From an uncultured Pirellulales bacterium (GTDB lineage: Bacteria; Planctomycetota; Phycisphaerae; Sedimentisphaerales; SM23-30), in assembly GCA_964580995.1 (NCBI GenBank), contig CAZOMV010000007.1, positions 11,096-75,095 of the forward strand: DNA of 64,000 nt, read 5' to 3'. The first letter of the stretch is position 1; every line of letters starts with the position of its first letter. Below the pieces are notes generated by a model that had not been told where the DNA came from, did not search any database, and saw only the letters and a list, made by a program, of their open reading frames with translations. Both the position numbers and the translations under genes were made by a program. Positions 4,325 to 32,433 of this stretch are shown here, in pieces.

Positions 4325-5662
4325 TTAAGCCTTTTTCCCGGGGGTAAGCTGAATGGCGGGCGGCTGAAGGCCGGCTTTGGCCAGCAGGGCGTATAAGATG
4401 AACCCGATGATGAAGGCGATGACGGGAGCGGGGTTAATCCAGCCGAATTTCGACGGGCTGACCGTGGGAAGAATTGCCACGATAAAACCGACGGCCCAGG
4501 CGATATAGCCGGCCATATTAATCCCTTTGCGCGGGCCGGCCCATTTGTTGCCGCTGAGGAGATAATCGGCCAGCATGGACCCGCAAATCGGGCCGAAGGA
4601 GGCGCCAATGATGGAGAACACACCTACCAGGTTCAAGGCGACGCCGGTGGCGGCCAGGATGATCGCAATGACCGCACCGATCAAGACCATTACCATCTTA
4701 TTGGCGGTGGGGAACATGGTGCCGATACTGTTGGCAGCGATCAAAGAACAGAAACAGGCTGGGGCAAAGCTGGCGATGGCAAAGAGGATAAACATCCATT
4801 GGGCCAGTTTGCCACCCTGGGACCGGATGACGGCATCGAAGGCGAAGGAATCGAGGGCGGGATTGGCGCCGTGGGCGCCAGCGATGGCGATGAGGGGCAG
4901 ACCACCGGCAAAAACGATGGCCAGGGCCACACCGACCAAACCACCCATTCTTACATCTTTTTCATTGCGGCTGCCCGTGCCAAAATCCACACCGGCGGCA
5001 CCGGCCGTAGCGAAGAAACCGACGACGATGCTAATCATGGTCAGGAATCCCGTGATGGGTTTGGCATTGGGGGCGACCTGAAAATCACCGGCGGTCCCGA
5101 CATTGGAAAAAAATACAAAAAGAATCATAACCAGGGGGACAATAGGAAGGAAGGTAGCGACTTTCGCGACGTATTTGATCCCCTTGACACCCATAAAGGC
5201 GGCAGCCAAACCCCAGATGATGGAGACAACAATAAACGGAGTAGTACCTGGAGTGCCATCTTGTCCCGCGGCCTGAAGGATGAAACTGCTCGCCACGGCG
5301 GTATTAACCGCCAGCCAGCCGAACTGAAGGAGGCCCATCAGCAGGCCGGGCATGAGAAAGCCGCCCAGGGTGCCGTAGGTGGAGGAACCGACGACATAGA
5401 GAGGGTAGCCGGTTTTCATGCCGAAAAGGCCGGGAACCAGATAGAAGAGGAAATGGCAGATCAGGGCGGCGGCGACCAGGCCCAGCAGGCTCAGGCCCAG
5501 GCCCGCCTGCGGCAGGGTGCCGTTGGCGATCTGCATATAAAAAACGACCCACAAAAAGATGCCCGCATAGGTGGGGGCGGTGTTTTTGTACCAGGGGGCC
5601 CGGTTTTCGGGCGGATTGGGTACGGCCATTTTCAGATAATTCGGAACCATTTCGTTACTCAT
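4325..5662 (-). CDS. NCS1 / cytosine-purine permease-like transporter (CodB-like)
   Basis: 445 aa with about 12 TM helices. Blocks align by eye to E. coli CodB (YGTLGGFLMPGLLMGLLQFGWLAVN; DFGTGSRNEKDVRMGGLVG). AAGGAG lies 8 nt before ATG 5662. Confidence 0.7.
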   Translation of the reverse strand: MSNEMVPNYLKMAVPNPPENRAPWYKNTAPTYAGIFLWVVFYMQIANGTLPQAGLGLSLLGLVAAALICHFLFYLVPGLFGMKTGYPLYVVGSSTYGTLGGFLMPGLLMGLLQFGWLAVNTAVASSFILQAAGQDGTPGTTPFIVVSIIWGLAAAFMGVKGIKYVAKVATFLPIVPLVMILFVFFSNVGTAGDFQVAPNAKPITGFLTMISIVVGFFATAGAAGVDFGTGSRNEKDVRMGGLVGVALAIVFAGGLPLIAIAGAHGANPALDSFAFDAVIRSQGGKLAQWMFILFAIASFAPACFCSLIAANSIGTMFPTANKMVMVLIGAVIAIILAATGVALNLVGVFSIIGASFGPICGSMLADYLLSGNKWAGPRKGINMAGYIAWAVGFIVAILPTVSPSKFGWINPAPVIAFIIGFILYALLAKAGLQPPAIQLTPGKKA

Positions 5663-5674
5663 AACAGATTCTCC

Positions 5675-8113
5675 TTATAAAAAACCTTTCGCGACGTTTT
5701 GTTTTTTGCTGGTCCCAGTCAGCGTCAAGAGGGTGTGGATGACGACGAGGACCGCCAGAGCTATCGTAGTGTACTGGTGCGTATGATAGAGGAAGAACTG
5801 GCCGGTGGTGCCGAAGAGGTTGAACATGCTCAGGACGCTGGAGAGCATGACGGGCAGGGCCAGCAGGCCGATCAGCCAGAAACAAAGTTTCCGGAGCGGA
5901 CAAACGGAGGTGGCGGCCAGGAACCGGCTGGGATGCGCTCCCAGCAGGATCAGCAGGGCCAGACAGATCATGAAGGGCGGGGCGATGGTGCAGTGGAGCA
6001 TGAGGAGATAGCCGGTCATGGGTTTGCCGGTAAGGAAGAAGGCATAGAAGCCGGTGCCGGCCAGGACCAGGAAGCAGAGGAGGCCGGCCAGATAGATCAG
6101 CTTCTTCAGGAAGCCGTACCAGCGGTTGGAGCTGGGGACGGCTGGTTCCGCCGCGGCCATTTTCGAACCGGCGGCCAGGGCGGCCGCGACGGTCAGGCCC
6201 CGGAGGCAGTAGAGCAGCAGAATGGCGGCGATCAGGGCCGAGGCGGCGAAGGCGACCGTTTTCAGCATGGGACGAAATACGAAGGAACTGTTGAAAAGGG
6301 AGACATAGGTTTCGTCCAGAGGAAGGAAGTGAATCATCCTCTTGAACAGGCCGCGGTCGGAAGGCAGGGGGCTGTCGATAGCCAGGGCGGCCTGGTAGAA
6401 GGGAGCGTCGTTGGTGTGGCAGTCGGGACAGCCGCGAACGCCCAGCGATTGCGAGGCCGGCCGGACATCGTGGGCCAGAGGCCAGAGATACGGCTGGGCC
6501 GCTTCGTTTTCCTGTGAAACCAAGGCTCCGGCGTCATCCAACTGGTACATTTTACCGCCGCAAATATACACGGCAGTGCCCTGTACGAACGGCTGGCCTT
6601 TCAGGGTGGTTAGTACCTGGGTAATCATATTTTTGAACCAGGCTTCCTTTTCGGCCGTTTCCGGTTTCGCTACCTCTCCGTCAGCGAGATTTTCTTCCGG
6701 CATTTCCGGCCAGGTAACCGAGGCAGGCAGTTCATAGCCATGTAAGAGAATTTGGCTGGCAACCTGTTTGACCTCTTCGGGAACCAGGGGAACGACCTGG
6801 CCCTCTTTAAGCTGCGCCCAGAAGGCGGGCCACAGCATTTTGTGAGGTGCGATTTTGCCGGGCGGGGAATTGGGATCCACCGGCGGCAGTTCCGCCAAAA
6901 CCGGAGAGAGAATATGGGGCAGGGCATCCGGAGCCTTGTTCACCGTTTGCAGACCCAGGCTGTGCGCCCGGGATGTTTTTACAAAGGCAGCGGCATCGGT
7001 GGGCCAGGGGCCGCTGTGACAGGCCGTGCAGGCGAGCTTTTCAAAATGGACCGTGGGGATACCCACGTGTGTAGGTTTGGGTGAACCGAGCCGGCCGGCA
7101 TCAGGATTCTGAGGTTCATCGCTGCCGAGATGACAGCCTTCGCAGGTCAGGGTGGTAATGGCGGAATTATTATCCGCTCGTTTTTCCCCTTCATACCCGT
7201 GATTGATATTGTGATCGACGGTATTGCGATGGCAATCCACGCAGGCCAGGCCGGCTTTCAGGTGGACATCTTCATCCACATCCGTCCGCTGAGCATGAGT
7301 CTGGCTGGTGGAATGACAGAAATAGCAGCGTTCATTGGGAATAGCACGGGTCAGATGCAACTGAACCTTGTTCTCGCTATTGAAGCGGCTGGCATCGTAC
7401 TGAACGACGGGATAATCCAGGGATCCATCTTCCGGCACCCAGTGATCGGGTAATTTTTTTACCGAGCCGGTCACCCAGGCAAAGCTGCTGGTGGCCGTGT
7501 TGGCCCAGCCGAAATTCTGTTCGGCCAATTGTATGGCACACTGGGCCTGATCGTGGAAGGGTTCGGCATCGTGACAGGCCAGGCAATTGATTTCCATCGT
7601 ACCGGAGACATTCCAGCGGCCGGCAATGGGATCAATCGTTTCGCCGGATGGATCCGCGACACTGCCGCCGGGGAAATGGCGGCTGAAGACCTGGGTGAAA
7701 TCCCAGTCGGACAGCCCTACCTGCTGGGGTTTGTAGGTTCCTTCCCAATTGCGATACGACAAAGGAATCTGGGTGGCGGCGGCACAATCCCAGTAAATCC
7801 AGGGTTCCCCTTTATGGCCGGGATCGATATTTTCCTCGGCCGCATTGAAGTGCCAGCCATGACTGATTTTATCATAATCATGACATCGCCCACAGGTCTG
7901 CTTGGTGGAAAAAGGCCGATCGGAATCAGGGAAAATGGTCCCCGCATCTTTGTCATAGATCTTAATCAGGTGGACCGGCTGAGACAGATTTCCATCACCG
8001 GTATCCCCGATCATGGAGGAAGCACTTTCCTGAGCCGGTAAAGGCAAGGTACAAGCTACAAGGCAGATCACGGCCAGTGCGGTGATCCGGGACACAATAT
8101 TACGTTTTATCAT
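5675..8113 (-). CDS. Heptahaem c-type cytochrome fused to a C-terminal polytopic (cytochrome b-like) membrane domain
   Basis: Seven CxxCH motifs: CGRCH, CLACH, CYFCH, CVDCH, CEGCH, CTACH, CPDCH. There is an N-terminal signal anchor. The last ~200 aa form about 5 hydrophobic helices containing His residues. I prefer ATG 8113 (GGGAG 7 nt upstream) over ATG 8134. Confidence 0.85.
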   Translation of the reverse strand: MIKRNIVSRITALAVICLVACTLPLPAQESASSMIGDTGDGNLSQPVHLIKIYDKDAGTIFPDSDRPFSTKQTCGRCHDYDKISHGWHFNAAEENIDPGHKGEPWIYWDCAAATQIPLSYRNWEGTYKPQQVGLSDWDFTQVFSRHFPGGSVADPSGETIDPIAGRWNVSGTMEINCLACHDAEPFHDQAQCAIQLAEQNFGWANTATSSFAWVTGSVKKLPDHWVPEDGSLDYPVVQYDASRFNSENKVQLHLTRAIPNERCYFCHSTSQTHAQRTDVDEDVHLKAGLACVDCHRNTVDHNINHGYEGEKRADNNSAITTLTCEGCHLGSDEPQNPDAGRLGSPKPTHVGIPTVHFEKLACTACHSGPWPTDAAAFVKTSRAHSLGLQTVNKAPDALPHILSPVLAELPPVDPNSPPGKIAPHKMLWPAFWAQLKEGQVVPLVPEEVKQVASQILLHGYELPASVTWPEMPEENLADGEVAKPETAEKEAWFKNMITQVLTTLKGQPFVQGTAVYICGGKMYQLDDAGALVSQENEAAQPYLWPLAHDVRPASQSLGVRGCPDCHTNDAPFYQAALAIDSPLPSDRGLFKRMIHFLPLDETYVSLFNSSFVFRPMLKTVAFAASALIAAILLLYCLRGLTVAAALAAGSKMAAAEPAVPSSNRWYGFLKKLIYLAGLLCFLVLAGTGFYAFFLTGKPMTGYLLMLHCTIAPPFMICLALLILLGAHPSRFLAATSVCPLRKLCFWLIGLLALPVMLSSVLSMFNLFGTTGQFFLYHTHQYTTIALAVLVVIHTLLTLTGTSKKQNVAKGFL

Positions 8114-8143
8114 GCGAATCTCCCGTATGAGCATATTATCCAG

Positions 8144-9517
8144 TTACACCAGAAAATCTTCCGGTTTGAAATCCAGCCGGCGGGCGGCTTCCACGGCTTC
8201 GTTGACTTTCAAGACCGCGACGGCGGTTTCGTAGCCGATTTCGCCGGGGCAGCTCAGTTTGGCCTTGCCGCGAACGGCATCGAAGAAATTTTGCAGGTGC
8301 GGCTGGTGAAACGGCTGATCCATTTCCACCAGCAGATTGTACTTGGGAGGTTTGGGAGAACTTCGCACATCCACCACGGATTTGCTGGGTTCGGGCTGGC
8401 CGATACCGGCGTCCCGTTTGATATACCGCTTCTTTTCCCACTGGTACCATTGTTCTTCCGTGACGCCCTTTTCGCGATAGACGGCATTCCGGGCGGCTTC
8501 TTCGGAAGTGGACAGGGAACCCTGATCGCCCATGAAGGTTTCAAAGTAGCCGTTGCTGCTGTTGGTGGTCAGGGTTTGATACGAGGCACGCACGACACCT
8601 TCTTTGGTTTCATATTCATAGATGGCGATTACATTGTCGTACCACTCGTGATCGGTCCAGTAATCGACGCCGCCGCTGGCCATGACGGAGCGGGGCTGGG
8701 TCTGAAGGAACCAGGTATAGATATCGATCTGATGGGAGCCGAGGTCCACAATCGGACCGCCGCCCAGGCCCTTGTACCAGCGCCAATTCCGGAACTGTTT
8801 CATGTCTTTGTAGCCATATTTATTCAGGGTGGCTTCATCGAGTTCGGTATTTTTGGCATATCCTAAATCTTCACAAGCGGCCCGGCTGCGGTTCCACTGG
8901 CCGTTGATGGTGGTGATGCGGCCCAGGATTTTGGCTTCCTGGATGAGTTTCTCGTAGCAGAAGATGTAACGGGGATTGCTGCGCCGCTGGTGGCCGATCT
9001 GCAGCAGTTTGCCGGTGGCTTTGGCGGCTTCCACCATCTTCCGGGCGTTTTCCAGGGTGTTGGACATTTCCTTTTCGCAATAGACATGGAGGCCCGCGTT
9101 CATGCCGGCGATGGCATGTTCGGCATGCCAGAAGTCGGGGGTGGCAACGATCAGGGCATCCAGGTCTTTCTCCTTATCCAGCATTTCTTTGTAATCGGTA
9201 TAAGGAGTACCCACATGGCCGAGCTGTTTCTGCCGGCTAAGCTGGCCGGAAACCCGTTTGAGATTCCAATTTTCCCAGATATCACAAACCGCTTTGAAGC
9301 AGATACCGGAATTTTCACCCATCTTCAGGCAGGCGTCCAGGAGTACCTGACCCTCGGCACCGGCACCCAGCAGGGCGACATTAATCTGATCGGGCTTACC
9401 AGTCAGCACGGTCTGCCCCTTGGCCAGGGGCGAGAACATCAGCCCCGCACCGGCGGCGGCGGTGGAACGCAGAAAGGTGCGTCGATTCATACCTTGATTC
9501 GTATTCACTTCAGTCAT
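8144..9517 (-). CDS. TAT-exported Gfo/Idh/MocA family oxidoreductase
   Basis: Twin-arginine signal MNRRTFLRSTAAAGAG, Rossmann motif ALLGAGAEG, and a Gfo/Idh/MocA-like core (ATPDFWHAEHA...YCEKEM). Confidence 0.9.
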   Translation of the reverse strand: MTEVNTNQGMNRRTFLRSTAAAGAGLMFSPLAKGQTVLTGKPDQINVALLGAGAEGQVLLDACLKMGENSGICFKAVCDIWENWNLKRVSGQLSRQKQLGHVGTPYTDYKEMLDKEKDLDALIVATPDFWHAEHAIAGMNAGLHVYCEKEMSNTLENARKMVEAAKATGKLLQIGHQRRSNPRYIFCYEKLIQEAKILGRITTINGQWNRSRAACEDLGYAKNTELDEATLNKYGYKDMKQFRNWRWYKGLGGGPIVDLGSHQIDIYTWFLQTQPRSVMASGGVDYWTDHEWYDNVIAIYEYETKEGVVRASYQTLTTNSSNGYFETFMGDQGSLSTSEEAARNAVYREKGVTEEQWYQWEKKRYIKRDAGIGQPEPSKSVVDVRSSPKPPKYNLLVEMDQPFHQPHLQNFFDAVRGKAKLSCPGEIGYETAVAVLKVNEAVEAARRLDFKPEDFLV

Positions 9518-9558
9518 TTGCTAAAAACTCCATAAAAAATCATTCAAACTATTTATAT

Positions 9559-12906: not shown

Positions 12907-12951
12907 TTTATTACTCCAGATTGATAAAAATCAGTCCAATTTTCGGGGCCG

Positions 12952-14391
12952 TTACTGTTCCAACTGTTTGATGCGAATATTCCGGAACCAGATCGGGTGG
13001 CCGTGATACTGCAAGCCGATCAGCCCGTCCCGGGCCATATCCTTGTAGGCAATATTGAATTTATTGGGGGAGCCGTCGGGATTTTTGCCGGCCTGCGTCC
13101 ACTGGTTCAAATCCATATCGATGACCGGCACTTCATTCAGTACCACGTGAATCTTGTTATCCCGGCAGGTGATGATATAACGGTTCCACTGGCCGGCGGG
13201 TTTGACGGCATTCGCGCTGGGCGAAAGGCAATCGTAGATCGCGCCGCACTGGCCGTGCGGGGTGCCGTCGCCGGTTTCATGAATCTGCACTTCGATGGTG
13301 GTATTAATCCAGTCATTCAGGTCGGCACAACGTAAAAAGACACCGCTGTTGGCGTCTTTGGACAATTTGAATTCCAGATCCAGGATATAATTGCCGAACC
13401 GTTCCTTGGTCCAGATATCGCCGCCGCCGCGCGGGCTGAGCAAGCCGCCCTCTTCGACCACCCAACTGCCTTCGCTGGCCGCCCAGCCGGTCAGATCCAT
13501 ACCGTTGAAAAGCCAGCGCCAGGTGGGATAGCCCAATTTGGCACTTTCCTGGTCGAAATAGCGGATACACTGGATGATATCGGGGATGGAGTTATCCCAG
13601 TTGTATTCATATTCAATCGTAAAGACACCCTTGAAATTCTGGCGGTCCAGTTCGGCCAGCATCGCCTTGGCATCATTTTTGCCCGTTCCCCAGATAACAT
13701 CATGGGCATCGGGATTATTGAATTCGTTGACATCCTTGAAGTGCAGGGAAATGATGCGGCCGGAGAGTTTTTTCAAGGCCTCGACCGGATTGACGCCGGA
13801 ACGCATCCAGTGGCCGGTATCGGCACAGGCCCCGATGCGTTTGGAACGGCCCTGGCATACCTCCAGCACCTTGTCCGGATTCCAGTAGCCGGAAGGTTTG
13901 GGATGGTTGTGCAGGGCGACATTGATTTCATATTCATTGCAAAGGCGGTCCACCAGATCAAAGGCCTCGACCGGGGGTTCGGAGGTGATGGTTTCGATTC
14001 CCATCTCTTTGGCGAAATCGAAAACCTTGCGGCATTCCGCTTCGTCATTGGGCAATCCGACCACCCCGTAGCAAACCAGTTGAATGCCGGCGGCGGCCAG
14101 TTTTTCCCGGGCTGCCTTGCGGATTTCCGGGGTGGCCATATGGCCGAACGGGGCATCGGGCTTTTCCTTGCTGAAGGATTGGCCGGGGAAGGCTTCGATA
14201 TAGCTAAGGCCCATCAGTGCGGCATTATCCACCGCTTCGCAAAACGTGGCTTTATGGAAAGTCCAGGCCTGCACGGCCAGCCGCCAGTTTTCCGGGGCAT
14301 TCAAAACCGCATGTCCGGCCTGGGCCGGGGCCGCCAGAACTACAGAACCAATCATTCCCAAAAACATTAAAAATACATAACGCTTACTCAT
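12952..14391 (-). CDS. Secreted xylose-isomerase-like TIM-barrel (sugar phosphate isomerase/epimerase family) fused to DUF1080 (3-keto-disaccharide hydrolase-like) domain
   Basis: Signal peptide present. TIM-barrel blocks: IGACADTGHW, LHFKD, FTIEYE. DUF1080 blocks: LFNGMDLTGW...NSGVFLR...IEVQIHE...GAIYD...GLIGLQYHGHPIWFRNIRIKQL. Start is ATG 14391, with GGAG 9 nt upstream; the ORF-track start at 14400 is GTG. Confidence 0.85.
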   Translation of the reverse strand: MSKRYVFLMFLGMIGSVVLAAPAQAGHAVLNAPENWRLAVQAWTFHKATFCEAVDNAALMGLSYIEAFPGQSFSKEKPDAPFGHMATPEIRKAAREKLAAAGIQLVCYGVVGLPNDEAECRKVFDFAKEMGIETITSEPPVEAFDLVDRLCNEYEINVALHNHPKPSGYWNPDKVLEVCQGRSKRIGACADTGHWMRSGVNPVEALKKLSGRIISLHFKDVNEFNNPDAHDVIWGTGKNDAKAMLAELDRQNFKGVFTIEYEYNWDNSIPDIIQCIRYFDQESAKLGYPTWRWLFNGMDLTGWAASEGSWVVEEGGLLSPRGGGDIWTKERFGNYILDLEFKLSKDANSGVFLRCADLNDWINTTIEVQIHETGDGTPHGQCGAIYDCLSPSANAVKPAGQWNRYIITCRDNKIHVVLNEVPVIDMDLNQWTQAGKNPDGSPNKFNIAYKDMARDGLIGLQYHGHPIWFRNIRIKQLEQ

Positions 14392-14446
14392 TTTTTGCAC
14401 TCCATATAAAATTGAAAACGTATAAAACCTGTTTTACTCAATTACT

Positions 14447-15787
14447 CTATACATACCAGGGGCTGCGCGTGGACCGGGCCAAAAGCCGCTGGGCCTCGGG
14501 ATTGTTCAAAATTTCTTCTTTTTCGGGATCCCAGCGGATGGGGCTTTTGGTCAGCATGGCGATATTCAGCAAATGGCAGATGGTCGCGGTGCGATGACCG
14601 ATTTCCACGGAGGCCATCGGCTGATTGCGGGTTTTCACGGCATCGAGGAAATTCCGGTGGTGGCCGGGGCTGCGTCCCAGATGAACTTCCTCCGGCCGCA
14701 GTGTTTCCTGCAGCAGCGAGGCCGGCTCGGCCTCCAGCATTCCGCCGTGAATATGGATAAAGATCCAGCCGTCGCTGCCGATGAATTTCAGGCCGCGGGG
14801 ATCGACGCTGGCGCCGATCATTTTTACCCCGTTGGCATAGGTGCATTCGAAATCATACTTCATATAGGCATCGTACAGGCCGCTTTTGGGTGCCTCGCCT
14901 TCGGCCCGCAGCTCCACCGGACCGGTATGATCCGTACCGTTGCCCAACTGGCCGATATCGATAATGTGGGCGCCGCGGTCGGTCATCTCCCCGCCGCCGT
15001 AGTTGAAAATGAACCGCCACCAGAAATGGCAGCGCCGTTCGGTATAGGGAACCCAGGGAGTCGGCCCCAGCCACATGTCATAATCCAGACTCTCCGGAAC
15101 GGGCATATTGGGAAAGATATTTTCATTATTGATGATTTCCAGGTGATGCGGGTCGCTGTTGGGCATGTTAATCTGGATGGTATGCAGTTTGCCGATGCGG
15201 CCGTTGCGGACCAGTTCGCAGGCAAACCGGACGCTGTGCCGGGACCGCTCATGCGTACCGTTTTGCAGAATCCGCCCGTAACGCTGAACCGCCCGGCGTA
15301 CCGCGATCCCCTCGGCAATGGTATTGACCAGCGGTTTTTCACAATAGATATCCTTGCCGGACTCCGCCGCCGCAATCGTAATCAAGCCATGCCAGTGGTC
15401 CGGGGTGCCGATGGAAACCGCGTCGATATCCTGCCGGGCCGTTAGCTCGCGGAAATCGCGGTATTCCGCACAGCCGTCCCCGCCGCCGGACTTATCCTGC
15501 TGGGCGTAAAAATCCTGCACGATTTTTTTCGCCCGGGCCTTGTGATTGGCATCCACATCGCAGACCGCCACCACCTGGACTTCCGGCTGATTCAGAAACG
15601 CCTGCATGTTGCCGGTCCCCTGGCCGCCTACCCCGATACAGCCCATCACAACGCGGTTGCTGGGGGCCACCGCACCATCCAGGCCTAGGGCACGGCCGGG
15701 AATAATCGTGGGAAATCCGATGATGCCGCCGGCAGAGGCCAGGGCGGTACCTTTCAGAAATTGACGCCGGGAAATTTTTTTGGTCAT
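14447..15787 (-). CDS. TAT-exported Gfo/Idh/MocA oxidoreductase (paralogue 1 of tandem array)
   Basis: TAT signal SRRQFLKGTALASAGG, Rossmann motif GCIGVGGQG, and block IGTPDHWH...YCEKPL. Confidence 0.9.
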   Translation of the reverse strand: MTKKISRRQFLKGTALASAGGIIGFPTIIPGRALGLDGAVAPSNRVVMGCIGVGGQGTGNMQAFLNQPEVQVVAVCDVDANHKARAKKIVQDFYAQQDKSGGGDGCAEYRDFRELTARQDIDAVSIGTPDHWHGLITIAAAESGKDIYCEKPLVNTIAEGIAVRRAVQRYGRILQNGTHERSRHSVRFACELVRNGRIGKLHTIQINMPNSDPHHLEIINNENIFPNMPVPESLDYDMWLGPTPWVPYTERRCHFWWRFIFNYGGGEMTDRGAHIIDIGQLGNGTDHTGPVELRAEGEAPKSGLYDAYMKYDFECTYANGVKMIGASVDPRGLKFIGSDGWIFIHIHGGMLEAEPASLLQETLRPEEVHLGRSPGHHRNFLDAVKTRNQPMASVEIGHRTATICHLLNIAMLTKSPIRWDPEKEEILNNPEAQRLLARSTRSPWYV

Positions 15788-15816
15788 ACTTTACATCCTT
15801 TTATTTTTATTATTCC

Positions 15817-17130
15817 TTACAGCCGCCAGGGACTGCGCATCGCACTGCCGAGCATCTGGGAAGCGGCCGGGTCGCCGATAATCTCTTCGGTATCCGGATT
15901 GAAACGAATCTTTCTGCCCAGCAGCATCGAAATCTGACCCAGATGGCCGGGCGAGGCGGACCGATGCGCTACTTCACACGGGGTCAGGGTAGTGCTGCGG
16001 GTTTTAATGCAATCCAGGAAATTACGCTGGTGGCCGGGCGAACGGTACAGGTTAATCTCATTCGGGCTGAATTTTTCTTCCAGTAAACTTTTGGGTTCCG
16101 CTTCCAAAAAGCCGCGGTTCACCCAGACCCAGCCGTCTTCTCCAATCCATTTGGTCCCGTGGCCGATCTGGTCATAGCCGCCGGCCATAATCATCTCCAG
16201 GCCGCTGGCATATTTAACGGTCACATAATATTTGGTGGCGGCATTCCAGAGTCCGCTGGAGGGAAATTCTCCCTTGCCGTCCACTTCGACCGGGCCGGCA
16301 TAGTCCAATCCCAAACCCCAGTGCGCGATATCCACATGGTGGCCTACCCAGTCCATCAGTTGCCCACCGCCGTAATCCAGATGCCAGCGCCAGCTCGTAT
16401 GGAGCCGTGCGGGACAATATGGCTCATAGGGGGCCGGGCCTAACCAGAAATCATAGTCCAGCTCCGGGGGAGGCGGGCAGATGGTTTCCTGACCGGTATT
16501 ACCGAAATCAGAAAATCCGGATGGTAATCCCACTTCTACCCGCCGGACCTTGCCGATGCGGCCATTTAAAACCAGTTCACAGGCGAAACGGAAATTGCCC
16601 ACGGACCGCTGCCAACTGCCGGTCTGCCAGACCCGGCCATAGCGTTTCACCGCATTACACATGGCCCGGCCTTCCTCGAGAGTATGCGACAAGGGTTTTT
16701 CACTATAAATATCTTTGCCGGCCTTCGCGGCGGTGATCGCACAAATCGCATGCCAATGATCCGGTGTAGCGCAGGAAACGGCGTCAATGTCCCCCCGGGC
16801 CAGCAGGTCACGGAAATCATGGTAGGCTTTGCAATCCTGATTGCCATATACTTCATCAACCCGGTTTTTCGCCTTGTTGAGATGTTTCTGGTCCAGATCG
16901 CAGACCGCGACGACCTGACAATCTTTTTCATTCAGAAAGGCATTCATATTATCCCCGCCCATCCAGCCCACACCGATACAACCTAGTGTAATCCGATTAC
17001 TGGCTGCGACCGAACCATCACGTCCCAGGGCGGAAGAGGAAATCAAATAAGGAAAACTGACCGCACCGGCGGCGGCCAGCGAAGACTTCTTTAAAAATTG
17101 ACGTCTCGAGATGGTCTTTTTGTCTTTCAT
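15817..17130 (-). CDS. TAT-exported Gfo/Idh/MocA oxidoreductase (paralogue 2)
   Basis: TAT signal SRRQFLKKSSLAAAGA, Rossmann motif GCIGVGWMG, and block ATPDHWH...YSEKPL. Confidence 0.9.
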   Translation of the reverse strand: MKDKKTISRRQFLKKSSLAAAGAVSFPYLISSSALGRDGSVAASNRITLGCIGVGWMGGDNMNAFLNEKDCQVVAVCDLDQKHLNKAKNRVDEVYGNQDCKAYHDFRDLLARGDIDAVSCATPDHWHAICAITAAKAGKDIYSEKPLSHTLEEGRAMCNAVKRYGRVWQTGSWQRSVGNFRFACELVLNGRIGKVRRVEVGLPSGFSDFGNTGQETICPPPPELDYDFWLGPAPYEPYCPARLHTSWRWHLDYGGGQLMDWVGHHVDIAHWGLGLDYAGPVEVDGKGEFPSSGLWNAATKYYVTVKYASGLEMIMAGGYDQIGHGTKWIGEDGWVWVNRGFLEAEPKSLLEEKFSPNEINLYRSPGHQRNFLDCIKTRSTTLTPCEVAHRSASPGHLGQISMLLGRKIRFNPDTEEIIGDPAASQMLGSAMRSPWRL

Positions 17131-17157
17131 AATCGTATCCTGAAATATCCAGCTATC

Positions 17158-18519
17158 TTATATACGCCAGGGAGACCGCATGGGTCGAGCGACCATTCGG
17201 TCCATTTCTTCATCATTCACGACATGTTCGGTCACCGGGTCCCACTGCAAGGTCCGCTCGGTCTGGAGGGCAATATTCAGCAAATGGCAGATCGTGGCGG
17301 TCCGGTGGCCCACTTCCGCCGGTGCCATCGGCAGATTTCGGGACTTGATGGCCTCGAGAAAATTGCGATGGTGGCCGGGACTGCGGCCCAGATGGATTTC
17401 TTCCGGGCGGATGATTTCCTGCAAAAGGGAAGCCGGCTGGGCTTCCAGCCGCCCGCCGTGAATATGAATGAAGATCCAGCCGTCGGTACCCTCGAATTTC
17501 AGGCCGCGCGGCTGGTCGATACCACCCAGCATTCGCACGCCATTGGCATACTCACATTCAAAGGTATATTTATCGTAGGTATCAAACAAACCGTTGCGCG
17601 GAGCCGAACCCCGCGCGGAAATTTTGACCGGGCCGGAATCATCGGTATTATTGCCCAACTGGGCGATATCAATGATATGGGCGCCGCGGTCGGTCATCTC
17701 CCCCCCACCGCATTCCAGTATATAGCGCCAATAGAAATGGCCGCGCCGGCGGGTATAGGGATACCAGGTCGTCGGGCCTAGCCACATATCGTAATCCAGT
17801 CCCGGCGGGACCGGCATGGGCGGCTGGGGGCCGATGGCAATCTGATTATCCACGGGCATATTGATGCGAATCGTGTGCAATTTACCAAGGCGGCCATTGC
17901 GGACCAGTTCGCAGGCAAACCGGACACTGCTGCCGGAACGCTCGTGGCTGCCCGTTTGCAGAACTCGTTTGTATCGTTTTACCGCCTCGCAAACGGCCCG
18001 TCCTTCCGGGATGGAATTCACCAGCGGTTTCTCACAATAGATGTCTTTGCCGGCTTTGGCGGCGGCGATGGAAACCAGGCCGTGCCAATGGTCGGGCGTG
18101 CAAACCGTGACCGCATCGATATCCTCGCGGGCCAGCAATTCGCGGAAATCGTTATAGCCGGCGCAGCCTTTGTAGGTGCCGTCGGTTTTTTGCTGAGCAT
18201 AATATTTTTCTGCGCGCTGGCGGGCGGGATTCCGGCCGGCGGTCGTACTGCCTTCAAACTGATACAGTTTGTCATAATCGTCGCTGCCCTCGTTGACATC
18301 GCAAATCGCCGCTACCTGGACATCGGGTTGTTCCAGAAACGCCAGCATATTCCAGGTACCCTGCCCCCCGGCTCCGATGCAGCCCATCACAATCCGGTTG
18401 CTGGGGGCTACCGTGCCATCCAGTCCCAGTGCGGAAGAGGGAATGATATACGGAAAGCCTATCGCGCCGGCGGCGGCCAGCGAGGTTTTCTGCAAAAATT
18501 TTCGTCTGGATATTTTCAT
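17158..18519 (-). CDS. TAT-exported Gfo/Idh/MocA oxidoreductase (paralogue 3)
   Basis: TAT signal SRRKFLQKTSLAAAGA and Rossmann motif GCIGAGGQG. Closely resembles paralogue 1 (VRFACELVRNGR[IL]GKLHTI, ATICHLLNIA). I prefer ATG 18519; position 18537 is TTG. Confidence 0.9.
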   Translation of the reverse strand: MKISRRKFLQKTSLAAAGAIGFPYIIPSSALGLDGTVAPSNRIVMGCIGAGGQGTWNMLAFLEQPDVQVAAICDVNEGSDDYDKLYQFEGSTTAGRNPARQRAEKYYAQQKTDGTYKGCAGYNDFRELLAREDIDAVTVCTPDHWHGLVSIAAAKAGKDIYCEKPLVNSIPEGRAVCEAVKRYKRVLQTGSHERSGSSVRFACELVRNGRLGKLHTIRINMPVDNQIAIGPQPPMPVPPGLDYDMWLGPTTWYPYTRRRGHFYWRYILECGGGEMTDRGAHIIDIAQLGNNTDDSGPVKISARGSAPRNGLFDTYDKYTFECEYANGVRMLGGIDQPRGLKFEGTDGWIFIHIHGGRLEAQPASLLQEIIRPEEIHLGRSPGHHRNFLEAIKSRNLPMAPAEVGHRTATICHLLNIALQTERTLQWDPVTEHVVNDEEMDRMVARPMRSPWRI

Positions 18520-18561
18520 GGCTTGTCCCTTTTCCAAAGTCCTACCATGACTGGTGTATTG

Positions 18562-19860
18562 TCATATATTCCACGGGCTGCGGCGCGATCGGGAAAGCAA
18601 ACGATTGCCTTCTTCACAATTGGTGAACCGTTCCTGAACCGGATCCCAGTGCAGGGGCAGGCCCAGTTGATACGCCAGGTTGCCCAGGTGGCAAACAGTA
18701 ACGGACCGGCAGCCCGTCTCCACATCACAGATGGGTTTGCTGCGAGTGCGGATGGCCTGGAGCCAGTCGGCATAATGATTGTCACTTTCGTATAAGTGGA
18801 TCTCATTGGGGCCGATGACCTGCCGCATCAGGCTTTCGGGCCAGGTTTGCAGATAGCCCCGGTTTACTTCCACTTTTCCTTCGGTTCCGGTAAAGAGGGT
18901 ACCATTGGCCTCATCGCGGGTCATAGTCACACCATTGGCGTATTGGTAGGTCAGGACTTTATAGTCCTTACCATCCGGCGGGATGATCTCCACCGGCCCG
19001 CTCTCATCCATCCCCAGACCCCACTGGGCAATATCGAAATGATGGGCGCCCCAGTCCGTCATGCCGCCTCCGGAATAATCCCGATACCCCCGCCAGTTGG
19101 GATAGATATCGATGCTGATGTGAGGGGCCAATTCCGAATGGAAGGGCCGCCAGGGAGCCGGTCCCAGCCACCGGTCCCAGTCCAGGTAATCCGGCACCGG
19201 CTCAGCCGGCAGGAAACATTCTTCCGAGGGACCGCCGATATTCACGGTAACCGTTTTCAACTCTCCAATATAACCGTTCCGCACCAGCTCGCAGGCAAAC
19301 CGGAAACCCGACATGGAACGCTGCATGCTGCCAGTCTGAAACACCCGTCCATACCGCCGGACCGCCCGGGCCATCGAACGGGCCTCCGCTATGGTTAGGG
19401 ATAGAGGTTTTTCACAGTAGATATCTTTGCCAGCCTGGGCGGCTTCAATCACGGGTATCTCGTGCCAATGGTCAGGAGTCGCAATCACTACCGCATCAAT
19501 ATCGTCCCGTGCCAGCAGTTCCCGAAAATCCCGATAAGCGGCACATTCCATTTTATTGGATTGGCTGGCGTAATGGTTTTGGGTGATTTCCTTGGCACGA
19601 TTCAACTTCAGGTTATCTACATCACAGACCGCCAAAACCTGGGTGCCGGGCGTATTCAGAAAAGCGGACAAAAGTCCGGTTCCCTGTTTCCCCACCCCAA
19701 TAAAACCCAGGTTAATCCGGTCGTTAGGGGCGATAATACCCGTTCTGCCTAAGGCAGAGGAGGAAATTATGTGAGGAAAACTGATAGCACCTAACGCGGA
19801 GGCTATCGTATTTTTCAAAAAATCACGACGCGTTCCTTTCACCTTGCTTTTTTTCGGCAT
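18562..19860 (-). CDS. TAT-exported Gfo/Idh/MocA oxidoreductase (paralogue 4)
   Basis: TAT signal TRRDFLKNTIASALGA, Rossmann motif GFIGVGKQG, and block ATPDHWH...YCEKPL. Confidence 0.9.
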   Translation of the reverse strand: MPKKSKVKGTRRDFLKNTIASALGAISFPHIISSSALGRTGIIAPNDRINLGFIGVGKQGTGLLSAFLNTPGTQVLAVCDVDNLKLNRAKEITQNHYASQSNKMECAAYRDFRELLARDDIDAVVIATPDHWHEIPVIEAAQAGKDIYCEKPLSLTIAEARSMARAVRRYGRVFQTGSMQRSMSGFRFACELVRNGYIGELKTVTVNIGGPSEECFLPAEPVPDYLDWDRWLGPAPWRPFHSELAPHISIDIYPNWRGYRDYSGGGMTDWGAHHFDIAQWGLGMDESGPVEIIPPDGKDYKVLTYQYANGVTMTRDEANGTLFTGTEGKVEVNRGYLQTWPESLMRQVIGPNEIHLYESDNHYADWLQAIRTRSKPICDVETGCRSVTVCHLGNLAYQLGLPLHWDPVQERFTNCEEGNRLLSRSRRSPWNI

Positions 19861-19988
19861 TCGGGATTACTCCAAAACCTTGGGCAAGATCATTTAACAA
19901 AGACCATGCTTTCTATAATGATTCAAAACCGGGCATGACGTTAGGTCAAAACTTGGGTGAACACAAACTGGCTGGCCCAGGTTTCGAT

Positions 19989-20981
19989 TTATTCATCAAA
20001 CGAGGCGTCAAAGGCTCTTTTAGACGGTTCAAAATCGATGGAGCGGACAAATTCACAGGCTTCCAGGGCGCCGTGCTCGCGATCCATCCCGCTGTCTTCC
20101 CATTCGACAGAAAGAGGCCCGGCATAATTGGCACGGTTCAAGGCCCGAATGATTTCCTCAAAATCAACCCCGCCCCGTCCGAGCGATCGGAAAACCCAGC
20201 CTCTGCCGGGCTGACCAAAATTCAGATGGGAGGCCAGAATCCCGCTGCGACCATCCAATTGCAAAGCGGCATCTTTCATGTGCACATGATAAATCCGATT
20301 GGGAAATTCGTTGATAAAACAGGCCGGGTCAACCATTTGCCAATGTAAATGGCTGGGGTCAAAATTAAATCCGAAGGTCTGGCGATTTTTGACAGCTTCC
20401 ACAGCCCGTTTGGCCGTGATAATGTCGAAGGCGATCTCGGTGGGATGCACTTCCAGGGCGAACTTGACACCGCATTCATCAAAAACATCCAGAATCGGGT
20501 TCCACATCTTGGCAAAATAGGCAAACCCTTCCTCCACCATCTGGTCGGAGACGGGGGGGAAACTATATAACATATGCCAGATGGACGAGCCGGTAAAGCC
20601 GTTGACCACCTTGATCCCCAGATTTTTGGCGGCACGGGCGGAATCTTTCATTGCCTCGACGGCCCAGGCACGTTTCTTCTTGGCATTGCCGACACATTCC
20701 GCCGGTGCGAACATATCGGTACGCGAGTCATCATTCGGATCGCAAACCAACTGCCCAGCCAGGTGATTGCTGATGGCGAAAAGCTGGAGGTCATTTTTCT
20801 CCAGAATCGCTAACTGCTTTTTGCAATAAGCTTTATCTTTGGCGGCCTTGGCAACATCCATATGGTCGCCCCAGCAGGCCAGTTCCAGGCCGTCATAGCC
20901 CCAACCGGCTGCCTTTTCCGCTAAAACTTTCAATGGTAAATCCGCAAATTGTCCCGTGCAAAGTGTTACTGGTCTAGCCAT
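19989..20981 (-). CDS. Sugar phosphate isomerase/epimerase (xylose-isomerase-like TIM barrel), cytoplasmic
   Basis: Sequence [17 protein letters not shown]...[13 protein letters not shown]...[12 protein letters not shown]...YHVHMKD. No signal peptide. GGAG lies 8 nt upstream of the ATG. Confidence 0.85.
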
Positions 20982-21025
20982 AATTCTTCTCCAAATCGTA
21001 AGTTACGGTTATGTAATGGTTACAT

Positions 21026-22198
21026 TTAACGTTTCATTTTGGTCCATTTGGACTTGCTTTTGGCGCTGGTAAGCAGGGTATCGATAAACAACATGCCCCG
21101 CAGACCATCGTCCACCTTGGGAAAATCATTTTCCAGATCCGTCGGTTTGGTTTTGGCCAAATAGGCCCGCAGCGTATCGGCAAAATTGCAGTAGGTGTTG
21201 GCAAACGCCTCGATGAAGGCTTCCGCATGGCCCGAAGGCAGCCGGGTGCCCCGGGCGGCGGCTTTACTCTTGGCGGCGATATAGCCGTTGCCGCGCCGCC
21301 AAACCTGAAGCGGGGTATCCGCTTCTTTCACATATAAATAGTTGGGATGCTCCTGATGCCATTCCAGACTCTTGTTTTCACCATAAATCCATATGGCCAA
21401 ACCGTTTTCCTCACCGATGGAAATCTGGCTGGCGTGGAGAACACCCCTGGCGCCGTTATTGAAATGAAGCAGGCAGTTGCCGTCATCATCCAGGCGGCGC
21501 CCTTTTACGAATGTGGTCAAATCTGCACATATCTCGGTAATTTTCAGGCCGGTTATGTATTCCGAGAGATTTTCGGCATGGGTCCCGATATCGCCCATGC
21601 AGCCGGCCCCGCCGCTCTGTTTGGGATCGGTTCGCCAGGATGCCTGCATCTGGCCGGTCTTTTCAAGAGGGGTGGCCAGCCAGCCCTGCGGGTAAATCAC
21701 CACGATCTTCCGGATATTTCCCAAATCCCCCTGCCGCACCATATCCCGCGCCAGCTTGACCATCGGATAGCCGGTATAATTGTGCATCAGGCCGAAGACC
21801 TTGCCGGTTTTGGTGACGATTTTCTTCAGATCACGGGCTTCCTGCACATTCAGAGTCATCGGTTTTTCGCACATGACATGGAAACCAGCCTGTAACAGGT
21901 CCCGGGCGATGGGGAAATGCCAGTTATTGGGGGTCGTTACAGCCGCGAAATCAATTCGCTCTTCCGCGGGCAGTTTCAGTTCCTTTTCGATCATCTCGGC
22001 ATAAGTCGAGTACACCCGCTTGGCATCCAGGCATAATTCCTGACCCATCTGTTTGGATTTATCCGGATTGATATCGAAGGCACCGGCAACCAGTTCGATC
22101 CCGCCATCCAGCCGGGCGGCCTTCCGGTGAACCTCCCCGATAAAAGCGCCCGGTCCGCCCCCTACCATACCCATCCTCAGCTTGCGATTCAGTTTCAT
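21026..22198 (-). CDS. Gfo/Idh/MocA oxidoreductase, cytoplasmic
   Basis: Sequence MKLNRKLRMGMVGGGPGAFIGEVH..., with no TAT signal. I prefer ATG 22198 (AAGGAAAAA upstream) over the ORF-track start at 22231. Confidence 0.85.
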   Translation of the reverse strand: MKLNRKLRMGMVGGGPGAFIGEVHRKAARLDGGIELVAGAFDINPDKSKQMGQELCLDAKRVYSTYAEMIEKELKLPAEERIDFAAVTTPNNWHFPIARDLLQAGFHVMCEKPMTLNVQEARDLKKIVTKTGKVFGLMHNYTGYPMVKLARDMVRQGDLGNIRKIVVIYPQGWLATPLEKTGQMQASWRTDPKQSGGAGCMGDIGTHAENLSEYITGLKITEICADLTTFVKGRRLDDDGNCLLHFNNGARGVLHASQISIGEENGLAIWIYGENKSLEWHQEHPNYLYVKEADTPLQVWRRGNGYIAAKSKAAARGTRLPSGHAEAFIEAFANTYCNFADTLRAYLAKTKPTDLENDFPKVDDGLRGMLFIDTLLTSAKSKSKWTKMKR

Positions 22199-22532
22199 GT
22201 TTTTTTCCTTTCGCAAAAAATTCCCGGTCATTTACCTTAAATTATTATAAAATTATGTGAAATAGTGGTTTACGATTATTCCATTGCAGCCTGTCGCAGA
22301 TGCCATAACCTGATGAAACGACTAGTTTTAACTATTAGTGAATATATTTCAATAAAAATTCGCCTCCCTTTCCTCTTTTTCCCTGTTCTCTTCTATGTGA
22401 AACTTCTTCACCAGCATACATCCGTCGGTAGCTTAATTCTACTCTTTTTATTAATTTTGGTTGACAATACCCAAAAAAAACGGGTTAATCTACCAAAATT
22501 AGCCATTGGTAAATTTTATACAAAATTTTCCC

Positions 22533-24731: not shown

Positions 24732-24954
24732 ACATCTTGCTTATCGACAAAGAATGAAAGGCAATTCAATACCATTTCCGGAACCACACTGGATTATAGG
24801 ACCATTATTGCCATATTCGAATCCCTGCCTTTCATACCTGCGTAATTTTTTCCAGGTTGGCCGGCCAAATCCGGAAATACGTTCTGGATTAAAAAACGGA
24901 ACGGATTACAATATAAGACCGATATGCCTTTTTAAATACGTCTTGGAGATACAC

Positions 24955-31925: not shown

Positions 31926-32433
31926 AATCGATACCTCCGTATTGTACCTGATTTTTGTAAAATTTCCCGTACATGGATCCACAATATATATAGATAGATG
32001 CAAAAAATAGAGAAAGGTTACAAAAAATCTTCTTTTTTCGTGTTTTTTTCAGTTTGACGGGTGCAGTTTTTCTTTTAGAAATTGTCCCGTAAAGCTTTGC
32101 GCCATCCGGCTGATTTCCTCCGGGCTGCCCGAAACGCCAGCTCCCCCATCCAGCCGCCTCCCCGTTTCCCTACCCCCGTCACCCTTTTTCACCCTTCCCG
32201 CCTGATCATTCCCCACCCTTTAGCCAGTACTGTAAGAAATGCAGGACATCCGCTCACCACGCTTTTGCCACTCCCGTGTCGCACTTATGAGTTGAATCCG
32301 CCGGTGTTTGATTCCTTTAATTCTTAAGAAAATGACAGACGGGCATGGAAATGATATATTTGGGACATTATTATAAACCGCGTGTGCAATTCCGGGAAAT
32401 ACCGGAATCGCACTCCCTACCCGGCTCGACCGG

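Follow-up and report, generated by a model that had tools for sequence, protein, structure and literature searches.

A conserved pairing of an exported Gfo/Idh/MocA dehydrogenase with a heptahaem cytochrome in a planctomycete gene array proposed to process 3-keto-glycosides

Introduction

How does an exported sugar dehydrogenase dispose of the electrons taken from its substrate when its nicotinamide cofactor is tightly bound? The question is raised by a gene array in a 64,000-nt stretch of DNA from an uncultured Pirellulales bacterium (contig CAZOMV010000007.1, positions 11,096–75,095), hereafter called the window. Eleven co-directional minus-strand genes, named G1 to G11 in the order of transcription, occupy positions 4325–22231 and are separated by gaps of 9–128 nt in the list of open reading frames (ORFs), the exact width varying with the choice of start codon. 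Among their products are five Gfo/Idh/MocA oxidoreductases with twin-arginine translocation (TAT) signals (G3–G6 and G9) and a heptahaem cytochrome (G10). The original prediction, made from the sequence alone, saw here a periplasmic oxidative (3-keto) glycoside pathway with many substrate-specific dehydrogenases, for which the cytochrome could serve as a re-oxidant. The ORF list and Pfam confirm the eleven-gene layout, with all genes, domains and positions as placed there; the TAT signals on G3–G6 and G9 and the seven CXXCH motifs of G10 were likewise found where they had been put. The comparison with related loci presented below ties the cytochrome to G9 alone and suggests that the array joins two conserved modules.

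Glycans are now known to be broken down to a large extent by another route as well, periplasmic oxidation–elimination, which counts as a major alternative. In Bacteroides and Alistipes, a TAT-exported Gfo/Idh/MocA enzyme with tightly bound NAD oxidises C3, and lyases with a triosephosphate isomerase (TIM) barrel or a DUF1080 domain carry out the elimination and hydration (PMC8121099; 10.1101/2024.03.25.586180). In the same work, the dehydrogenase AL3/BT2158 stalls in the reduced state in vitro unless an oxidant is added; its authors named cytochromes as a possible re-oxidant and left re-oxidation in vivo open.

Conservation of the G9–Cytochrome Unit

Loci with the same arrangement were retrieved from other genomes and metagenomes, about 150 in all. 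When species-representative genomes were searched with a cytochrome alignment, at least 544 places with a relative came up, and 80 of these loci were fetched; a reciprocal search from G9 in metagenome contigs gave 80 loci, 70 of them with enough downstream DNA. The ORFs of the relatives were called per locus and sorted by BLAST against the proteins of the window, so that distant or novel neighbours are invisible to the comparison. The flanks cover 6–10 kb only, and the taxon names are the labels of the deposited metagenome-assembled genomes (MAGs).

A G9 orthologue lies directly upstream of the cytochrome in 68/68 loci with enough upstream DNA, 63 of which were counted by a strict distance rule and five by inspection. 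The identity at these loci amounts to 50–72% for G9 and 38–51% for the cytochrome. When the search is started from G9, the cytochrome follows in approximately 62 of the 70 loci. Most cytochrome loci belong to Planctomycetota (Phycisphaerae, Sedimentisphaerales), while the remaining labels comprise Bryobacterales/Acidobacteriota, Calditrichota, KSB1, Omnitrophota, and Cytophagia (Bacteroidota-labelled) MAGs. Gene-neighbourhood statistics had been proposed in the original prediction as a check, and the G9–cytochrome adjacency indeed recurs across several phyla; the synteny, conserved in both search directions, argues for the functional link between dehydrogenase and cytochrome that had been suspected.

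The other genes around the pair are retained to different degrees. The cytochrome b561-type part of G10 is present in 72/75 cytochrome loci, a lipoprotein in 39/50, an Agl23-like membrane protein in 32/45, and the flavin transferase ApbE in 36/45, including the minimal loci L037 and L079, which consist of G9, the c part, the b part and ApbE only. A permease is found downstream of the cytochrome in 31/53 loci, a DUF1080 match within 4.5 kb upstream in 30/55, paralogues of the G3 type within 10 kb upstream in 33/43, and ThuA in 15/43. In five loci of the reciprocal search, the order is lipoprotein, Agl23-like protein, ApbE, G9, cytochrome; permuted orders that keep the neighbourhood are seen in L134–L136, L146 and L147. 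Functional coupling usually shows itself in this way, by a neighbourhood that survives permutation and the fusion or splitting of genes.

Such a neighbourhood might nevertheless carry no mechanism, the pathway being redox-neutral and the cytochrome, the Agl23-like protein and ApbE forming an unrelated membrane system beside G9. Redox-neutral recycling is the published model, no G9–cytochrome fusion was found among the relatives, and some G9 orthologues stand alone; yet a 68/68 adjacency over several phyla, which outlasts changes of order and holds whether the c and b parts are split or fused, would hardly be expected if co-expression were not under selection, and we regard this possibility as very unlikely. 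A protein of 1108 aa (P0093) was considered as a G9–cytochrome fusion and rejected, as it has no Gfo domain.

In the literature searched, no paper was found that pairs a Gfo/Idh/MocA enzyme with a multihaem cytochrome, ApbE or an Agl23-like protein, and the G9–cytochrome unit, widely conserved as judged by gene neighbourhoods, is apparently undescribed. The claim of novelty made in the original prediction thus stands for the unit itself, of which no description was met, but not wholly for the idea, since a cytochrome re-oxidant had already been suggested. The components and the general idea of cytochrome-coupled periplasmic sugar dehydrogenases are known; the exact wiring here appears to be new.

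The Dehydrogenase G9

In all six Gfo/Idh/MocA proteins of the array (G1, G3–G6, G9), PF01408 is matched above the Pfam cut-off, as is one of the models PF19051, PF22725 and PF02894. G9 belongs to a family of its own and shares only 24–28% identity with G3–G6. The twin-arginine RR and the F of its signal are invariant across G9 orthologues, and G5, G6 and G9 match Pfam or TIGR models of TAT signals; export is predicted for G3–G6 and G9. By analogy with the glucose–fructose oxidoreductase (GFOR) of Zymomonas and with AL3/BT2158, we infer that the exported Gfo/Idh/MocA enzymes of the window hold their nicotinamide tightly. Two assignments of G9, to the GH109-type glycosidases and to the near kin of the C-glycoside oxidoreductase DgpA, were considered and rejected because the Rossmann half alone aligns.

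The Heptahaem c/Cytochrome b Protein G10

The CXXCH motifs of G10 lie at residues 81, 184, 270, 298, 331, 369 and 569. In an alignment of 60 cytochrome sequences, all CXXCH cysteines and six of the seven histidines are invariant, the seventh (H274) being kept in at least 90%. Seven additional histidines are invariant in the same 60 sequences, which makes one possible distal ligand per haem. The protein matches Cytochrome_C7 in Pfam with 34.4 bits (cut-off 24.8), and its family comprises 344 clusters at 50% identity (E ≤ 1e-30). A sequence search of PDB gave nothing useful for G10, and Foldseek with its AlphaFold2 (AF2) model (predicted local distance difference test, pLDDT, 72.6; haem-rich stretch 300–374 of low confidence) returned nothing under E 0.7.

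The last ~165 residues of G10, behind the first anchor helix, form a second domain, G10b, that had been overlooked earlier; it has four membrane helices, which makes five together with the anchor. It aligns to positions 15–173 of the 179 of PF01292 (Ni_hydr_CYTB) with E 2.9e-4 and 21.1 bits, the cut-off being 30.1. Among 19 members of the G10b family, 14 match PF01292 (best E 1.2e-11), and two match a Ferric_reduct/MsrQ-type b-haem module. Only two histidines are invariant in the family, which is enough for one haem, and the helices are modelled by AF2 with high pLDDT. In most relatives, the b part is a separate gene of ~170–220 aa located directly after a c-type gene of ~630 aa. The membrane domain suggests a link of the cytochrome to the quinone pool.

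The Proposed 3-Keto-Glycoside Pathway

The periplasmic 3-keto-glycoside pathway postulated earlier is well supported by the homologies of G2, G7, G3–G6 and G1, the last being paired with G2. Residues 18–325 of G2 align to residues 25–331 of the PDB entry 8RO4, a ‘2-hydroxy-3-keto-glucal hydratase’ (E 2e-53); the similarity to 2ZDS reaches E 1e-109. With similarity over its full length, G2 is a candidate 2-hydroxy-3-keto-glucal hydratase of the AtHYD type. G1 belongs to a widespread cytoplasmic Gfo subfamily, as shown by its match to 3V5N, and by analogy is a candidate NAD(P)H-dependent 3-keto-sugar reductase.

G7 combines the two lyase/hydratase folds of the Bacteroides/Alistipes pathway in one polypeptide that is predicted to be secreted. 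Its residues 294–478 match PF06439 (3keto-disac_hyd/DUF1080) with 165.3 bits against a cut-off of 26.8. The closest PDB entry for the TIM half is 3P6L (E 9e-77), while the DUF1080 half is related to 3IMM (E 1e-33) and to 8TDA/8TDE, named ‘probable secreted glycosyl hydrolase’ (E 2e-12). G7 may be regarded as a candidate 3-keto-glycoside lyase/hydratase.

The four exported paralogues G3–G6 are 45–64% identical to each other (64% for G4–G6, 45–47% for G4 versus G3 or G5). Their best NCBIfam model is BT_2158_fam (NF058561, equivalog; glycoside 3-dehydrogenase). The cut-off of this model, 750 bits, is far from being reached by G3 (170 bits, E 7e-50), G5 (162), G6 (144), G4 (141) or G9 (74), and the matches span only profile positions 1–264 of 487. 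The exported dehydrogenases of the window are homologous to BT_2158_fam but not equivalogs. The closest solved relatives of G3–G6 are the dehydrogenases 8TDF and 8TDH (E 2e-28 for G3 versus 8TDF). For AL3, a catalytic Asp/His pair and a sugar-binding Arg and Trp have been described. The D-x3-H motif is kept in the G3-type enzymes (TDWGAH versus GDMACH), and what seems to be the substrate-binding part, aligned to RPIW of 8TDF and containing R192 and W195 of AL3 by an inferred numbering offset, is not conserved in G3.

A sixth paralogue of the GFO_IDH_MocA_C2 type is encoded elsewhere in the window (44120–45571, minus strand), about 1 kb from a gene for a GH78 alpha-L-rhamnosidase with an inserted F5/8-type-C domain (46614–49922, minus strand). 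More oxidative glycoside loci may exist in this genome.

The ThuA domain of the giant protein G8 occupies residues 53–276 (PF06283, 149.8 bits against a cut-off of 33.4), and G8 orthologues adjoin G3-type paralogues in L166, L167 and L001. The C-terminal 165 aa of G8 resemble the last ~160 residues of a DUF2961 protein encoded at 24595–27516 on the plus strand (blastp E 8e-13, 26% identity), which matches PF11175 with E 4e-75; the beta-sandwich module is therefore common to two secreted carbohydrate-related proteins. The ThuA-HEAT orthologue of Anaerohalosphaera lusitana (L166, CP019791.1, 3138–6281) ends in an F5/8-type-C domain, not in a beta-sandwich. In the ThuA-HEAT giants, the C-terminal module seems to be interchangeable and of a carbohydrate-binding-like kind.

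Two Modules in One Array

The regulator gene that the original prediction had placed divergently from the array is present at 22506/22533–23543, and its product has the C-terminal double helix-turn-helix (HTH) and the N-terminal cupin domain of AraC/XylS regulators (Pfam HTH_AraC and AraC_binding). A homologue with 99% identity occurs in ‘Planctomycetes bacterium ADurb.Bin412’. Both in A. lusitana, a cultured anaerobe, and in a Phycisphaerae MAG, the AraC gene is divergent from a G1-like gene, a TIM-barrel gene, G3-type paralogues and a ThuA-HEAT gene. There is no cytochrome within the 10 kb fetched around the A. lusitana module; in the MAG, whose locus stops inside the ThuA gene, the 10 kb fetched in that direction show none either. 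Since the AraC-linked set (G1–G6 and G8) occurs with no cytochrome over these distances, the window joins two separate modules. We infer that the array unites two conserved modules of periplasmic oxidative (3-keto) glycoside cleavage: module A, with the AraC regulator, G1–G6 and G8, and module B, with G7 and the genes from G9 to a glycosyltransferase of family 2 (GT2) at the left edge of the window.

This division bears on the original proposal that the cytochrome is a common re-oxidant of all five exported Gfo/Idh/MocA paralogues. It is true that a single array holds all five and the cytochrome in the same orientation, that G3-type genes are found within 10 kb upstream of it in most loci (33/43, see above), and that AL3/BT2158 stalls in vitro without an added oxidant. 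However, G9 alone is invariably adjacent to the cytochrome, and the minimal loci L009, L037 and L079 contain no G3-type gene. Furthermore, the AraC-linked module lacks a cytochrome in A. lusitana and in the MAG flank within the limits just given, and a shared docking surface is not to be expected at the low identity of G9 to G3–G6. The part of the claim that had the cytochrome serving many substrate-specific dehydrogenases is therefore not supported in its original form, and a common role appears quite unlikely.

Permease and Left-Hand Genes

The conserved genes run on past the left edge that the original prediction had set for the cluster, as far as GT2. At 202 nt beyond G11, three more minus-strand genes follow, with 4-nt overlaps between them: those for the lipoprotein, the Agl23-like protein and ApbE. 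A single sigma-70-like site lies in the 202-nt gap ahead of the lipoprotein gene.

G11 has no Pfam match (PF02133 included) and no PDB sequence match. Its model resembles two transporters of the NCS1 family, CodB for cytosine (7QOA) and Mhp1 for hydantoin, with a Foldseek probability of 1.0 and TM scores of 0.59–0.68 (0.63–0.68 against CodB) at 15–20% identity, which points to a distant relationship, and its homologues carry the name ‘cytosine permease’ in JGI and NCBI. The F5_F8_type_C match of the lipoprotein (E 2.6e-6) scores 28.0 bits, slightly under the cut-off of 28.2; its orthologues at the cytochrome loci share 49–70% identity. The 1736–3349 protein exceeds the threshold of TIGR03663 (‘flippase activity-associated protein Agl23’) with 189.9 bits against 126.25; DE and HGP motifs are conserved in the family, and no sequence relative was found in PDB. 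The PF02424 score of ApbE is 166.7 bits (cut-off 25.6), and in L042, L051 and L076 ApbE forms the C-terminal part of a fusion with the Agl23-like protein. In 32 loci GT2 follows ApbE at a short distance, as the very next gene in most of them, and is convergent on it in 31/32; its orthologues are 44–58% identical, with the exception of the close relative L052. GT2 and the Agl23-like protein look like a pair for glycosylation from a lipid-linked hexose, and the lipoprotein with its Pro-rich linker is a possible acceptor.

From this side, the locus could also be read as a system for modification of an envelope glycoconjugate. GT2 would make polyprenyl-phosphate-hexose, the Agl23-like protein would flip or transfer it, and G9 with the cytochrome would oxidise the sugar, lipid-linked or just attached, and hand the electrons to menaquinone, in a manner similar to that of DprE1 with decaprenyl-phospho-ribose, the F5/8-type-C lipoprotein being the acceptor or adaptor. 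Whichever the gene order, GT2, the Agl23-like protein, ApbE and the lipoprotein do accompany G9 and the cytochrome as conserved neighbours, and Agl23 is a putative hexose-phosphate-dolichol flippase. Moreover, many loci (L006–L008, L012–L014, L017, L020, L022 and others) bear a very distant Gfo-like gene directly behind the b-type gene and ahead of the permease, 22–27% identical to G5, which could encode the matching reductase. However, this extra gene is absent from the window, L037 and L079 have neither GT2 nor the Agl23-like protein nor the lipoprotein within 10 kb, and the DUF1080 matches upstream and the permease downstream of the cytochrome are catabolic features. An envelope function has, in our view, only a slim chance of being correct.

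Proposed Electron Transfer

The reading that we prefer, and to which we assign about an even chance, combines homology and synteny into a two-module 3-keto system in which G9 would be the dehydrogenase of a membrane complex. In module A, TAT-exported BT2158-like glycoside 3-dehydrogenases would act together with the secreted ThuA-HEAT protein and its carbohydrate-binding-like domain, and the cytoplasmic keto-glycal hydratase G2 and the NAD(P)H-dependent 3-keto-sugar reductase G1 would complete the route. In module B, G9 would be exported folded with its nicotinamide cofactor and would oxidise a sugar hydroxyl, most likely at C3 of a glycoside, its product feeding the adjacent TIM-DUF1080 lyase/hydratase G7. 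The electrons would pass from G9 to the heptahaem c part of G10, then to the b561-type domain and finally to menaquinone. A covalent FMN, attached by the co-conserved ApbE, would probably split the two-electron hydride into single electrons. Keto-sugars would enter the cell via the NCS1-like permease G11, to be hydrated and reduced in the cytoplasm. G3–G6 might recycle their cofactor on keto-sugars, as AL3/BT2158 do, or be relieved indirectly by G9. Of all this, the genes and their homologies, the signal and haem motifs and the conserved synteny are read from the sequences, whereas substrates, complex formation, the flavin, the direction of electron flow and co-transcription belong to the proposal.

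Several links hold this scheme together. Since a bound nicotinamide gives up its electrons only in pairs and cannot readily reduce haem unaided, a flavin should stand between it and the haems, and ApbE offers one; devoid of a signal peptide, ApbE could act in the cytoplasm on a TAT substrate before its export. Because G1 and G2 are cytoplasmic, G11 is the probable way out of the periplasm for the keto-sugar; with it the oxidant of the redox-neutral cycle would be gone, and an outside acceptor would be needed. The earlier premise that an exported dehydrogenase with a bound cofactor requires a re-oxidation partner needs qualification: the published pathway recycles bound NAD on 3-ketoglucose, which makes a cytochrome dispensable in principle.

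A bolder version would see in G9, the cytochrome c/b protein and ApbE an unrecognised class of respiratory dehydrogenase, in which a nicotinamide enzyme outside the cytoplasm would be connected via a covalent flavin and seven c-haems to a b-haem quinone site. A signal-less ApbE would flavinylate a TAT substrate at a non-canonical site prior to export, and GT2 and the Agl23-like protein, as a dedicated pair for lipid-linked-hexose glycosylation, would mature or anchor the complex via the F5/8-type-C lipoprotein. We put it forward tentatively, as a possibility well short of an even chance.

Several observations weigh against the preferred reading. The Bacteroides/Alistipes pathway is thought to be redox-neutral, the bound NADH being recycled via reduction of 3-ketoglucose (PMC8121099; 10.1101/2024.03.25.586180). 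The AraC-linked module of A. lusitana does without a nearby cytochrome, and the b561 match in the window is below the Pfam cut-off (21 versus 30 bits). Seven G9 orthologues (~10%) in the reciprocal search are alone; the one inspected, L163, has unrelated neighbours, and L087 carries G9, the lipoprotein, the Agl23-like protein and ApbE without a cytochrome. The solved relatives of G9 (GFOR/GH109 type) align to its Rossmann half alone, with E from 1e-13 to 1e-7. The EK[PE] motif is changed to EAP or ECM in the G9 orthologues of the L009 and L037 lineages, so the catalytic lysine is not universal in the family. A signal peptide is missing from ApbE of the window and from the 46 unfused orthologues listed. 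The strict flavinylation motif [ST]GA[ST] occurs in no protein of the cluster, and even a loosened motif gives no column with at least 50% of the sequences in the family alignments of G9, G10, G11, the lipoprotein and the Agl23-like protein; without a conserved motif of this type, the flavin step has no identified acceptor site. Finally, the closest relatives are anaerobes, namely anaerobic Sedimentisphaerales and MAGs from anaerobic digesters.

This last observation also favours the opposite direction of flow, from menaquinol through the b561-type domain and the seven haems to G9, which would then be a periplasmic reductase of keto-sugars or other carbonyls, serving either as an electron sink of a fermenting anaerobe or to turn 3-keto-sugars back into usable sugars. 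Two of the 19 G10b members match the Ferric_reduct/MsrQ-type module, MsrQ being a protein through which electrons move outwards from quinol to an enzyme exported by TAT, and the Gfo/Idh/MocA enzymes of the pathway do reduce 3-keto-sugars. However, electron transfer from menaquinol (approximately −74 mV) to bound NAD(P)+/NAD(P)H (approximately −320 mV) is uphill. In addition, the PF01292 proteins that stand beside TAT-exported dehydrogenases, FdnI and HyaC, take electrons from the periplasm, and the array already has a reductase-like cytoplasmic enzyme, G1. We consider reverse flow to be rather unlikely.

Comparison with Known Systems

The loci BT2156–BT2160 of Bacteroides thetaiotaomicron and AL1–AL5 of Alistipes likewise encode a TAT-exported Gfo 3-dehydrogenase, a secreted TIM lyase, a DUF1080 lyase/hydratase and a further cytoplasmic Gfo enzyme. 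They lack a cytochrome, ThuA, ApbE and an Agl23-like gene, and their regulator is of the SusR type or a DUF6377 protein; in the window, by contrast, one protein unites the TIM and DUF1080 domains, and the exported paralogues number five.

The FAD-dependent periplasmic oxidation of C3 by Caulobacter LacABC and by the GlycDH type of Rhizobium and Agrobacterium has been described as cytochrome c-dependent (PMC8121099). The Agrobacterium route comprises GlycDH with a TAT partner, the beta-eliminase AtOGE, the hydratase AtHYD and an NADH-dependent Gfo reductase (PMC10628242, PMC8121099). Its pair of hydratase and Gfo-type 3-ketoglucose reductase is mirrored by G2 (E 2e-53) and by G1, to which a similar role is ascribed. 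The FAD systems rely on a flavoprotein dehydrogenase of the glucose–methanol–choline (GMC) type, whereas in the window a Rossmann enzyme of the nicotinamide type stands beside a protein that joins a heptahaem c to a cytochrome b. In FAD-dependent glucoside 3-dehydrogenase systems, the cytochrome is small.

The overall architecture proposed for the G9 complex has parallels in FdnGHI and HyaABC, where a TAT-exported dehydrogenase, an electron-transfer module and a four-helix PF01292 subunit with b haem reduce quinone. These enzymes employ an iron–sulfur wire and a Mo or NiFe cofactor, in contrast to the heptahaem c and the NAD(P)-type dehydrogenase of the window, whose PF01292 score is below the cut-off. 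Zymomonas GFOR and GH109 are, as predicted for G9, TAT-exported Gfo/Idh/MocA proteins with non-dissociable nicotinamide, and they regenerate the cofactor within the catalytic cycle or by a second sugar. We know of no cytochrome partner for either of them.

In rhizobial ThuAB, as in the window, ThuA stands beside a Gfo/Idh/MocA (ThuB-like) gene in the context of 3-keto-disaccharides. ThuAB follows an ATP-binding cassette (ABC) importer and is regarded as cytoplasmic, whereas G8 is predicted to be secreted, has 1115 aa and is fused to HEAT and beta-sandwich parts. Haloarchaeal Agl22/Agl23 and actinobacterial Ppm1/Pmt resemble the left-hand genes in that a GT2 is paired with a GT-C-like membrane protein; unlike the pair in the window, they are not known to be linked to a dehydrogenase, a cytochrome or ApbE.

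If a Gfo enzyme does work together with a heptahaem c and a cytochrome b, the question of NAD re-oxidation becomes open to direct tests. Such a partnership would also mean that glycan-degrading Planctomycetota and members of several other phyla can draw respiratory electrons, and possibly proton-motive force, from extracytoplasmic sugars. The unit also points to an orphan ApbE with a substrate lacking the known motif, and it presents an unexplained link between a dehydrogenase–cytochrome pair and an Agl22/Agl23-like glycosylation pair.

Array Layout and Neighbouring Features

The features of the array and its flanks are collected in Table 1. A scan for promoters and terminators gave counts not above those in shuffled sequence and is uninformative for a planctomycete; no terminator-like site of the minus strand falls inside an intergenic gap.

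Table 1. Genes of the array and its conserved flanks, with window coordinates and the basis of each assignment
Feature	Position	Strand	Basis and remarks
AraC-family regulator	22506..23543 (ATG 22533)	+	Pfam HTH_AraC, HTH_18, Cupin_2, AraC_binding; divergent from G1
G1, cytoplasmic Gfo/Idh/MocA	21026..22231 (ATG 22198)	-	Pfam; no signal peptide; PDB 3V5N, E 2e-109
G2, cytoplasmic xylose-isomerase-like TIM barrel	19989..20981	-	PF01261, 138 bits; AP_endonuc_2; no signal peptide
G3, TAT-signal Gfo/Idh/MocA, C2-type C-terminal domain, BT2158-like	18562..19860	-	PF01408, PF19051; TRRDFL
G4, TAT-signal Gfo/Idh/MocA, G3 paralogue	17158..18537	-	Pfam; SRRKFL
G5, TAT-signal Gfo/Idh/MocA, G3 paralogue	15817..17130	-	Pfam; SRRQFL
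G6, TAT-signal Gfo/Idh/MocA, G3 paralogue	14447..15787	-	Pfam; SRRQFL
G7, secreted fusion of TIM barrel (~40–285) and DUF1080 (~294–480)	12952..14400	-	PF01261, PF06439; Sec-type signal
G8, secreted ThuA + HEAT + C-terminal beta-sandwich, 1115 aa	9559..12906	-	PF06283, HEAT_2; Sec-type signal
G9, TAT-signal Gfo/Idh/MocA, separate family	8144..9517	-	PF01408, PF22725, PF02894, TAT_signal; NRRTFL
G10, cytochrome c/b protein	5675..8134	-	c part G10c, b part G10b
G10c, heptahaem cytochrome c with one transmembrane helix, predicted Sec export	6155..8134	-	Seven CXXCH
G10b, cytochrome b561-type four-helix membrane domain	5675..6154	-	PF01292; fused to G10c in the window
G11, 12-helix permease	4325..5662	-	Distant NCS1 (CodB/Mhp1-like) by fold
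F5/8-type-C (discoidin) lipoprotein, Pro-rich linker	3346..4122	-	Lipobox LVSC
Agl23-like GT-C-type membrane protein, DE motif	1736..3349	-	TIGR03663, PMT/PMT_2; 4-nt overlap on each side
ApbE-family FAD:protein FMN transferase, no signal peptide	753..1739	-	PF02424; start in ATGA overlap
GT2 glycosyltransferase, like polyprenyl-phosphate hexose synthases	2..715	+	Glycos_transf_2, E 3e-11; runs off the left edge

The AraC and DUF2961 genes flank a minus-strand ORF (23556–24731) for a protein of 391 aa, rich in Gln and Glu and probably a coiled coil, which has no Pfam match. Three islands of low G+C content (32000–34800, 40000–44000 and 52000–56000) have values of 0.41–0.45 against 0.55–0.62 elsewhere in the window; two of them hold a leucine-rich-repeat protein of 772 aa (32434–34752) and an ankyrin-repeat protein of 599 aa (52881–54680), respectively. 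The local GC skew in the window is unusually strong and ranges from +0.29 to −0.42.

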